The notes under the pieces were generated by a model, which was not told the DNA's origin, made no database searches, and was given only the letters and a program-made list of their open reading frames with translations. Shown one piece after another: positions 2,950-45,360 of a stretch of 64,000 nucleotides of DNA. Where the stretch lies: the NCBI GenBank assembly GCA_032986305.1, contig GCA_032986305.1_3672.1. One strand, 5' to 3'. The DNA is from a phage. Position numbers and translations under genes: made by a program. Numbering within the stretch: the first letter of the stretch is position 1; each line of letters opens with the position of its first letter.

Positions 2950-3563
2950 TGGATATTATTGTTCTTAACGCCCCACCTAGCAGCGGCAAGGATCACATTG
3001 CAGATCTCTTGTTGGAAGCTATTCCTAACTCACACCACCGTGAGGTTAAGGAGATGCTCTTCAGTGTGGCAATTAAGGCAGCTGGTGTAACTCCTCAACT
3101 CTGGAATGCACTTTATGACCGCCACTACAAAGAAGAGCCTTGCCCTTTCTTAATGATAGACGGCAAGCATGTTTCTCCGCGAGAGTGGATGATCCATTGT
3201 AGTGAAAATCTGATTAAACCTATCTTTGGTGAAGATGCTTTCGGTAAGGCCGCAGTCACATCCTTGAAGAAAGATTTCCCTAAAGGTAAAGGGGTTGTTG
3301 TTTACTCCGATGGTGGATTCAAAGAGGAGCTGGCATGCCTTAGTGAGTACGCATACAGCACAGGTGGAGATCTGTTGTTGTTCCGTATTCACCGTGTCGG
3401 ATATGACTGGGGAAATGATTCCAGAACCTATCTAAGCCTGGAAAAGAACGGAATAAAAGGGATTGAGTTCGATGTTGTAAATCCTGAAGGTGCACCTTGG
3501 GAATGTGCATCGGAGATTGTGTGCAAGTATATTGATGCTAAAGAGGCCCAAGAAGAATGTTAA
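2949..3563 (+). CDS. deoxynucleoside monophosphate kinase-like protein
   Basis: N-terminal P-loop-like NAPPSSGKDHIAD resembling phage dNMP kinases (T4 gp1 type); SD GGAGG upstream. Confidence 0.5.
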   Translation: MDIIVLNAPPSSGKDHIADLLLEAIPNSHHREVKEMLFSVAIKAAGVTPQLWNALYDRHYKEEPCPFLMIDGKHVSPREWMIHCSENLIKPIFGEDAFGKAAVTSLKKDFPKGKGVVVYSDGGFKEELACLSEYAYSTGGDLLLFRIHRVGYDWGNDSRTYLSLEKNGIKGIEFDVVNPEGAPWECASEIVCKYIDAKEAQEEC

Positions 3564-43678: not shown

Positions 43679-43873
43679 TTACAGATTGCTCCAGTACAAT
43701 CGGCATTTACATTTTGGGCAATGAGGTTCTTTTATGTAATAACCGTCAGTCTTTGGAACACTTTTTGGTGCAGTTTTAAGATTGTACCTGGTAAAACATC
43801 GGAAGCAGGTTACCTCTCCCACCTGTTGATCGTTGATCCACTCACCAGAGTAAAGCTCTTTCTTGTTTCTCAT
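43679..43873 (-). CDS. small zinc-ribbon protein
   Basis: SD GGGAGAG before ATG 43873; CxxC...CxxC. Confidence 0.4.
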   Translation of the reverse strand: MRNKKELYSGEWINDQQVGEVTCFRCFTRYNLKTAPKSVPKTDGYYIKEPHCPKCKCRLYWSNL

Positions 43874-43899
43874 AATTCTCTCCCAAATCCTCTGCAATC

Positions 43900-44070
43900 T
43901 TATACCAAAATCTCCAGCCAGAAAGCACACGGGAACACCTTGAGGATTGAATCTTTACTTGGCTCGGAAGTTCTTTTTCCGTATGGTAGGTAGAAATACC
44001 CCCCTGCAGATTCGAATATAGCTCCTTCGGTTGTATCTACCACAGCAAGAATTAAGATTTTAGTCTCCAC
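43900..44070 (-). CDS. hypothetical small protein (56 aa)
   Basis: GTG start after AGAGAGGAGAG; below track threshold. Confidence 0.25.
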   Translation of the reverse strand: METKILILAVVDTTEGAIFESAGGYFYLPYGKRTSEPSKDSILKVFPCAFWLEILV

Positions 44071-44124
44071 AGTGCTCTCCTCTCTTAGTTGTTGTGGAAA
44101 CTATATCACCTCAGAAGATGGTCG

Positions 44125-44589
44125 TCAACACTTTTTGTACTCTACTACAACCACATCAATATCTGTGGTTGCAAGATTAATTACATCTTCTACATGTTCC
44201 CACTTTAGACCGCCAATACCGCATCCAATTTTAGGAATGTAGAACGGCAATGACACACCTTTGAATACCTCGTTGACTCGCTCAAAACCTTTCATTATTG
44301 AGAAGTATTCAGCATTGGGCCCTGGGTAGAACTGGGTATACAGGTTGATTCCATATACGACCCTGTTCTTGGCAAAATGCTCCCAACAAGAAAACATACC
44401 CAGCTTGTCCAGATTACCATAGGCAGTCTCTTTGTCGGCTGCCAGTGCTTGAGGGAACTCACGGGCAATATCTTTCGCTATGCCTGCACCCATTGTATGA
44501 AAGCAGTTACAACCGTGGATCAGGTGACCAGCACCGCTCTTAAAAAGGGAGATTAAATCTCCCGCTACAGTATCAATAATCGCGGTATG
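44125..44589 (-). CDS. TARG1/OARD1-like macro domain protein (N-terminus extends upstream of first ATG; no canonical start codon)
   Basis: Motif GDL...GHLIHGCNCFHTMGAGIA resembles OARD1 GDLF...AHCISEDCRMGAGIA; open frame 44493-44589 lacks ATG/GTG/TTG. Confidence 0.5.
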   Translation of the reverse strand, partial: HTAIIDTVAGDLISLFKSGAGHLIHGCNCFHTMGAGIAKDIAREFPQALAADKETAYGNLDKLGMFSCWEHFAKNRVVYGINLYTQFYPGPNAEYFSIMKGFERVNEVFKGVSLPFYIPKIGCGIGGLKWEHVEDVINLATTDIDVVVVEYKKC

Positions 44590-44998
44590 TCAGCTCCTCT
44601 TCCGCAATTTCAAAAAACTCATCCCAACCTTGTGGCATATTTGAGTTGCCGAAGTGGCTTTCATAGTAAAGGTTCTCACCACTTGGGAGATAGAAATCTG
44701 TTACCTCGTAGAATCCACAATCGTCGCACTCGCCTTCTTCAAACTTGGCCTCAACCTTAATACCTAGGAAGGTGAAAAGTTTATGGATATCTTCAGTTTC
44801 GAACTCCCAGCAGATATTGTTTTCCGCATCGGTGTAGAACTGGATCAGCAGACCATTATCCAGTTTACCAAAATATTCTGTGAAGTAACTACCTTCCCAG
44901 AAATCTTTATGACAAATAATATCCATGCGCTTGCCCATGATAAAGGTGTGGGCGTTTTGGGCATCGTCACGAATCAGTTTTGGCATTTCATAGATCAT
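44573..44998 (-). CDS. hypothetical protein
   Basis: 141 aa; 3' end overlaps macro-domain frame. Confidence 0.45.
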   Translation of the reverse strand: MIYEMPKLIRDDAQNAHTFIMGKRMDIICHKDFWEGSYFTEYFGKLDNGLLIQFYTDAENNICWEFETEDIHKLFTFLGIKVEAKFEEGECDDCGFYEVTDFYLPSGENLYYESHFGNSNMPQGWDEFFEIAEEELTYRDY

Positions 44999-45066
44999 CT
45001 TAGTTCTCCGGGTTCAACAGGTGGTGGTGCTACAGGAAGATCATAAAACATAGCTATCACAGTCTC

Positions 45067-45264
45067 TTACACAGGAATTGCTTCAAACAGGCCGTTATCT
45101 ATACCGTCCTTCAGATAGAGATTATATTCTATGTCGGTATCTGTATAAAGGGCAGCATCCAGCATTCTATCTGTGAGTCCATCCATTGGGTGGAGAAACC
45201 ACCACCCACGCCAGTCAAAGTAACAGCCTGGTGCATCTTCTCTTACACGGATTCGATAAATCAT
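45067..45264 (-). CDS. hypothetical protein
   Basis: 65 aa. Confidence 0.4.
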   Translation of the reverse strand: MIYRIRVREDAPGCYFDWRGWWFLHPMDGLTDRMLDAALYTDTDIEYNLYLKDGIDNGLFEAIPV

Positions 45265-45360
45265 GGGCAGTGGCCTCCTGTTAGTTATACATCCCAGTTT
45301 TCTTCGTTCATCACGTCCTCCCGTTCTATGAAGTTATAATTGCACACCTTTCCACCTGTG

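Follow-up and report, generated by a model that had tools for sequence, protein, structure and literature searches.

A single T>C transition appears to have turned the GTG start codon of a phage macro-domain gene into GCG, and we consider this a likely case of ordinary, recent knock-out or knock-down of a dispensable AdfM-like gene that involves no new mode of translation. The gene lies on the minus strand of the window, by which we mean the whole 64,000-nucleotide stretch of phage DNA analysed here. Both the family and its role have been described before, and novelty is confined to the private start-codon SNP, be it real or artefactual. The original prediction had offered three explanations for a conserved N-terminus devoid of a canonical start, namely non-canonical AUU initiation, a programmed frameshift and a recent inactivating mutation. 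The last of these is favored by the private GTG>GCG change; AUU initiation as a designed feature and the frameshift did not hold.

The macro-domain frame and its missing start

The neighboring genes around the locus are all encoded on the minus strand, as are the features that bear on the missing start:

44573-44998, minus strand: upstream 141-aa ORF, homologue of rV5 gp205 (phrog_8157, function unknown), with its stop TGA at 44575-44573
44594-44599, minus strand: Shine-Dalgarno (SD) sequence GAGGAG, 10 nt before the ancestral GTG, where the Murica record annotates an RBS
44590-44592, minus strand: in-frame TGA closing the macro frame upstream, from the translation and the codon listing
44125-44583, minus strand: conceptual macro gene of 152 codons, with GCG as codon 1 (GTG in relatives) and its stop TGA at 44127-44125
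44582, minus strand: private T>C (minus-strand sense) that changes the GTG start at 44583-44581 to GCG, from the alignment with four relatives
44575-44580, minus strand: ATT ATT (Ile2 and Ile3), 13 and 16 nt from the SD GAGGAG
44547-44563, minus strand: hairpin GGGAGAT-TTA-ATCTCCC of 7 bp followed by TTTTT, spanning codons 7-14, about 20 nt past the ancestral start
44506-44508, minus strand: AAC codon of Asn26, the invariant active-site Asn (82/82 sequences), upstream of the first ATG
44491-44493, minus strand: first ATG, corresponding to Met31 of the MGAGIA motif, which would give a 122-aa product
44332-44334, minus strand: CAG codon of Gln84, invariant, aligned with the catalytic Lys of TARG1 (K84) and DarG

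Translation of 44125-44607 on the minus strand reads ...S(stop)HTAIIDTVAGDLISLFKSGAGHLIHGCNCFHTMGAGIA...KKC(stop), and 32 open codons (44589-44494) precede the first ATG at 44493-44491. These codons spell HTAIIDTVAGDLISLFKSGAGHLIHGCNCFHT and lead directly into MGAGIA...KKC. Two claims made from the sequence alone were confirmed at this point: a codon-by-codon listing found no ATG, GTG or TTG among the 32 open codons upstream of ATG 44493, and the macro frame, which is +1 relative to the ORF at 44573-44998, overlaps the 3′ end of that ORF, the final 11 nt of the ORF being shared with the ancestral macro CDS. Given the in-frame TGA at 44592-44590, no start is possible farther upstream. If about 5% of sense codons could serve as starts, we estimate that a start-free run of 32 codons would occur by chance with a probability of ~0.2; the stretch is noteworthy because it encodes a conserved protein, the length of the run itself not being rare.

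This conservation is apparent from an alignment of 82 family members, in which G24, N26 and C27 never vary and conservation of G8, H23, C25 and F28 reaches at least 90%, in agreement with the proposal that the start-less stretch encodes a conserved N-terminus. All of the family invariants (G24, N26, C27, M31, G34, A36, D50, N80, Y82, Q84, P117, G120 and G122) are present in the window protein, and M31, which the first ATG encodes, is thus an invariant internal residue of the family across the 82 sequences. An AlphaFold2 model built from 82 homologues (pLDDT 96.7, pTM 0.91) displays the three-layer alpha/beta/alpha macro fold, with strand 1 at residues 2-8, helix 1 at residues 10-15 and strand 2 at residues 20-25.

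A macro-profile search, which had been suggested along with the original prediction, matched the 152-aa extended protein to Pfam Macro (PF01661) with 25.9 bits, above the gathering score of 22, as compared with 18.3 bits, below that score, for the 122-aa ATG product. The 152-aa protein also matches phrog_335 with an E value of 1.4e-59. The top Foldseek matches of the model (ranks 1-16) were TARG1 (4j5r), Poa1p (6lf entries) and DarG (5m31 and 5m3i), with TM scores of 0.73-0.77 and E values of 1e-9 to 3e-8, and those listed among the 173 PDB matches at E <= 1e-3 are macro domains or designed proteins of the same fold. By sequence, the closest solved proteins are the Mycobacterium tuberculosis DarG macrodomain (5m3i), Poa1p, SCO6735 and TARG1. 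The NCBIfam DarG profile (NF048014) gave 47.3 bits against a cut-off of 250 and aligned over positions 4-144 of 338, which is the macro part only, the C-terminal DarT-binding domain being absent from the 152-aa protein by this profile. The product would accordingly be a stand-alone macro domain rather than a DarG antitoxin, judging from these profile and sequence matches.

Assignment to the TARG1/OARD1 type was borne out for the fold and the binding motifs by the Foldseek and PDB sequence comparisons, but not for the catalytic dyad. The Lys84/Asp125 pair of TARG1 appears to be missing, Gln84 and a Gly standing at the aligned positions in the window protein and also in T4 Tk.4. In the alignment with DarG (5m3i), ...LYTQF... 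of the window protein likewise faces ...FPTKK... of DarG. The Gln is invariant across the T4-type Tk.4/AdfM family, in contrast to the catalytic Lys of TARG1 and DarG, and the AdfM of PhiKZ keeps the Lys. The catalytic mechanism of T4-type AdfM may thus differ from that of DarG.

A private GTG>GCG change in a mosaic Vequintavirus

At the position corresponding to 44583-44581, GTG was found in six of the six GenBank relatives that were fetched, and the window reads GCG. A 459-nt CDS (152 aa) is annotated at this same position in Murica, rV5, JLBYU08, WalterGehring and phiWec189, and in these five records it opens 11 nt before the upstream gene ends. Over ~1.4 kb (43746-45194), T>C at 44582 is the sole difference between the window and WalterGehring; the change is a transition and is synonymous in the overlapping upstream ORF (CGT>CGC, Arg). 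When codon 1 is left aside, the macro gene is base for base the same as in Murica, JLBYU08, WalterGehring and MiataMamis. None of 50,697 phage records matched a 61-mer centered on 44582 at 100%, and for the best 60 of the 118 records retrieved by blastn with an 80-mer ending in ...CCGCG, every alignment breaks off at query base 78, so that the C is left out. Among the distant homologues in IMG/VR, 38 of 39 have an ATG or GTG that coincides with the homologous N-terminus or lies a few codons from it at most, and the exception, the T4-like IMGVR_UViG_2706796257_000001, has a 1-nt deletion just after ATGATTAAA (at about 1485-1505), as a result of which its start and the macro domain are in different frames. 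Taken together, these alignments argue that a GTG or ATG start is ancestral and that GCG is a private change, which would be very recent because the CDS is otherwise identical to those of four relatives.

The window itself is a mosaic Vequintavirus, one of the E. coli myoviruses of the rV5 type. For the 1.4 kb surrounding the macro gene, identity is 95-99.9% with 44 Vequintavirus records in GenBank and 80-95% with 77 more. Across 25 kb (32000-56999), identity to any single GenBank record is ~91-96%, with short segments reaching 99.9%, and the mosaic phage itself is absent from the August 2025 phage collection. Within the macro gene, rV5 and the window differ at 10 of codons 2-30 and at none of codons 31-152, a contrast that points to an abrupt mosaic or recombination breakpoint within the gene, close to Met31. 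Sixteen unannotated "Campylobacter phage" records (MG0656xx, host C. jejuni) also match window positions 43900-45300; the eight of them that were listed are 95-97% identical to E. coli Vequintaviruses, and the C. jejuni host label of these records seems doubtful.

An exact look-up with the 122-aa protein returned a single other carrier of GCG, the 133-kb Logan contig SRR26490851_49, which is 100% identical over 6,369 bp. It does not constitute independent confirmation because it is fully identical to the window and very probably its source. The exact GCG pattern had no other carrier in IMG/VR or in the JGI metagenomes, collections that hold few close relatives. This absence weighs little because the control GTG pattern was itself recovered from 0 contigs in IMG/VR and only 2 in the metagenome collection, and the GenBank phage searches are the stronger evidence that GCG is rare.

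The same data bear on whether the phage really carries GTG and a normally expressed 152-aa gene, the C being either a minority variant or a mistake fixed in an automatic (Logan) assembly that had not been polished. The variant is known from one assembly, apparently the window's own origin, is absent from GenBank phages and from the metagenome and IMG/VR scans, and sits in a gene whose body shows no other sign of decay, all of which would fit an artefact. However, the absence from those two scans carries little weight given the nearly empty GTG control, the change is a substitution in non-repetitive sequence rather than a homopolymer indel, and genuine disruptions of the same gene occur in relatives such as V18. 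Consensus contigs seldom carry substitution errors in non-repetitive sequence, and we regard an artefact or minority variant as unlikely.

Translation signals, competing readings and gene decay

The GAGGAG element forms a duplex of -8.3 kcal/mol with the 3′ end of the 16S rRNA. No SD was found upstream of ATG 44493 (Met31), the best duplex there reaching -2.8 kcal/mol. A protein initiated at Met31 would be poorly made and non-functional because it has no SD and because the conserved N-terminal core is absent; this 122-aa product would miss strand 1, helix 1, strand 2 and Asn26. The ATT codons 2 and 3 are the only near-cognates placed for a near-full-length product, by leaky initiation or by termination-reinitiation, and the second one runs into the TGA that ends the upstream ORF (AUUGA). 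In E. coli reporters, canonical starts yield 10-100% of AUG, AUU yields 0.1-3%, and non-near-cognates such as GCG-type codons yield 0.01-0.2% (bioRxiv 10.1101/063800). E. coli itself is known to start infC and pcnB with AUU.

According to the reading that we favor, the ancestral GTG start would have become GCG by one recent transition at 44582 that is silent in the upstream gene. In homologues, the enzyme shields the replication of phage DNA from DarT2, presumably by stripping ADP-ribose off thymidines in DNA. Full-length protein would then arise only through leaky use of ATT 2 or 3, since GCG differs from AUG at two positions, a stop lies three codons upstream and Met31 has no RBS; its level would be about a tenth to a hundredth of normal, or less. 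The allele would thus be a null or a strong hypomorph caught before further decay, and we infer from the sequence that expression of the macro gene has been lost.

Weak, leaky AUU initiation is possible, and the gene might even remain functional if ribosomes loaded at GAGGAG, or terminating at the upstream TGA, started at ATT 2 or 3 and made enough enzyme for counter-defence. The placement of two in-frame ATTs behind a strong SD, the second one overlapping the upstream stop, the precedents of infC and pcnB with the reporter yields given above, and the intact macro ORF all lend themselves to such a scheme; coupled re-initiation is conceivable at ATT ATT, and the enzyme may suffice at low dose. 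On the other hand, the ATTs are the ancestral Ile2 and Ile3 and reveal no adaptation, all relatives use GTG or ATG, the spacing from the SD exceeds that of the ancestral start, the yield to be expected is some 10- to 100-fold under that of GUG, and the C variant was conserved in no other genome in the GenBank phage searches. We therefore hold a gene that functions through AUU to be quite unlikely. An evolved AUU start was rejected, the ATTs being ordinary Ile codons in relatives, which start with GTG or ATG one codon upstream. Initiation at the ATC of codon 11 behind GGGAG at 44563 was also discarded: this codon and the SD-like element are both contained in the stem of the hairpin, and strand 1 would be missing from the protein. 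It is very unlikely that the start loss represents a selected or engineered clean knock-out or knock-down sparing the upstream gene, for example as an escape from a host defence that senses the macro protein or is set off by it, or as a switch to IF3-sensitive AUU initiation with traces of enzyme left.

A programmed +1 (or -2) frameshift at the end of the ORF at 44573-44998 would instead join the upstream protein to the macro domain in a fusion of ~290 aa. In its favor, the macro frame is +1 to the upstream ORF with a 17-nt two-frame overlap between both stop codons, and a hairpin stands 9 nt downstream of the upstream stop. The sole stretch where a shift could occur, however, is ACA TAC CGC GAT TAT TGA, where a tRNA-Tyr paired to UAU is unable to slip onto AUU. 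A prfB-like arrangement, CUU-UGA with an SD 3 nt ahead of it, is absent as well: GAGGAG sits 15 nt (CTGACATACCGCGAT) upstream of the TAT codon, and a prfB-type shift needs ~3 nt. Moreover, the macro gene of relatives is a cistron of its own, with its own SD and GTG or ATG, sometimes behind a different upstream gene; among IMG/VR homologues with another upstream context, one displays an ATGA overlap and three have their own intergenic SD. The homologues listed span 92-245 aa, none being of fusion length. With no slippery site in the 17-nt overlap, independent cistrons in relatives and no fusions listed, the frameshift fusion was rejected and appears extremely improbable.

The start loss by a single T>C, which remains our preferred reading, has parallels in the decay of the same gene elsewhere. 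Escherichia phage V18 (KY683736.1, 1201-1950) contains an unannotated macro copy that, when compared with the window, has lost 55 nt and 150 nt in two internal deletions, an independent pseudogenisation of this gene. In the 1.7-kb Logan contig SRR24600047_92653 (about 375-385), the T5 that follows the hairpin is T6; the gene is identical apart from this, but its N-terminus is thrown out of frame, be it by another natural lesion or by an error in the homopolymer. From these sequences, and from the T4-like copy with the 1-nt deletion, the macro gene looks dispensable and seems to decay repeatedly; no second, compensating macro gene was found in the window by tblastn. Accessory anti-defence genes thus flicker on and off, here by start loss, in V18 by deletions, and in two assemblies by frameshifts.

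The hairpin at 44547-44563 is present in the centroid fold and is recorded as a "terminator" in the GenBank record of Murica. This terminator-like element might dampen transcription that continues into the macro gene, or might influence initiation; its signal is confounded with the conserved G-D-L-I-S-L-F peptide and is inseparable from coding constraint.

The 122-aa ATG form is called in MiataMamis (PP925834.1, 1308-1676) and in JGI Ga0495776_073173 (3001-3369) although the GTG is intact in both. Gene callers thus silently give a 122-aa "phosphatase" here, even where the GTG is intact, which amounts to start mis-annotation.

The phage is predicted to be without, or poor in, an AdfM-type enzyme, and hosts with DarTG2 may restrict it, unlike its near-identical relatives. 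Compared with WalterGehring or Murica, it would offer a natural isogenic-like control for the role of Vequintavirus Tk.4 against DarTG2. Neither a new translation mechanism nor a new gene family is involved.

Relation to AdfM, DarG and known AUU starts

T4 tk.4 was identified as the single T4 gene needed against DarTG2, its knock-out being sensitised, and was named adfM, for anti-DarT factor Macrodomain (bioRxiv 10.1101/2025.11.20.689424). T4 Tk.4 (NP_049723) shares 39% identity and 65% positives with the window protein over residues 2-150 (E value of 8e-43). Both have the motifs HGCNCFHTMG(A/S)G(I/V)A and NLYTQFxPGPNxEY, including the Gln at the position of the catalytic Lys, and both are stand-alone macro domains of ~150 aa encoded amid small early or accessory genes of large virulent E. 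coli myoviruses. The family is widespread, with 2,742 phage records retrieved by tblastn, and in T4-like phages the gene adjoins vs. The similarity in sequence points to the window gene being the Vequintavirus orthologue of T4 Tk.4/AdfM, a known anti-DarT2 counter-defence family.

A more remote phage macro domain, gp104 (AdfM) of PhiKZ, strips DarT2-made ADP-ribose from DNA in vitro, rescues DarT2 toxicity and is imported into the phage nucleus; mutation of its N23, described as the "conserved asparagine in the catalytic site", lowers de-ADP-ribosylation (PMC13309987). N26 of the window protein corresponds to this residue, with equal spacing from the MGAG motif. PhiKZ AdfM is, like the window protein, a stand-alone DarG-like phage macro domain with a conserved Asn before MGAG, but the two are only ~24% identical, and PhiKZ AdfM retains the DarG-type "PTK" Lys where the window family has Gln. 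The anti-DarT counter-defence that had been put forward for this gene is thus established for homologues, genetically in T4 and biochemically in PhiKZ, and would extend to the Vequintavirus copy by analogy; a DarT2-related function is what we infer for it on that basis.

The nearest solved folds are those of DarG (5m31, 5m3e and 5m3i), human TARG1/OARD1 (4j5r) and yeast Poa1p (6lfq-u); DarG carries a C-terminal DarT-binding domain, and the window protein lacks one. In E. coli infC and pcnB, AUU lies downstream of an SD and is positioned to start translation, as are the ATTs here. The infC AUU is conserved and regulatory, however, whereas in the window a private mutation has exposed ATTs that are nothing but codons 2 and 3 of the gene. 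The closest counterparts are rV5 gp204 ("tk.4"), Murica, WalterGehring (bas51_0094) and JLBYU08, where the same gene occupies the same position and is flanked by the same neighbors on either side. With codon 1 excluded, the Murica group and the window are 99.8-100% identical over the CDS, the former having GTG and the latter GCG. The T4 gene belongs to Straboviridae and that of the window to Vequintavirinae, and it is only in the window gene that the start codon has been destroyed.
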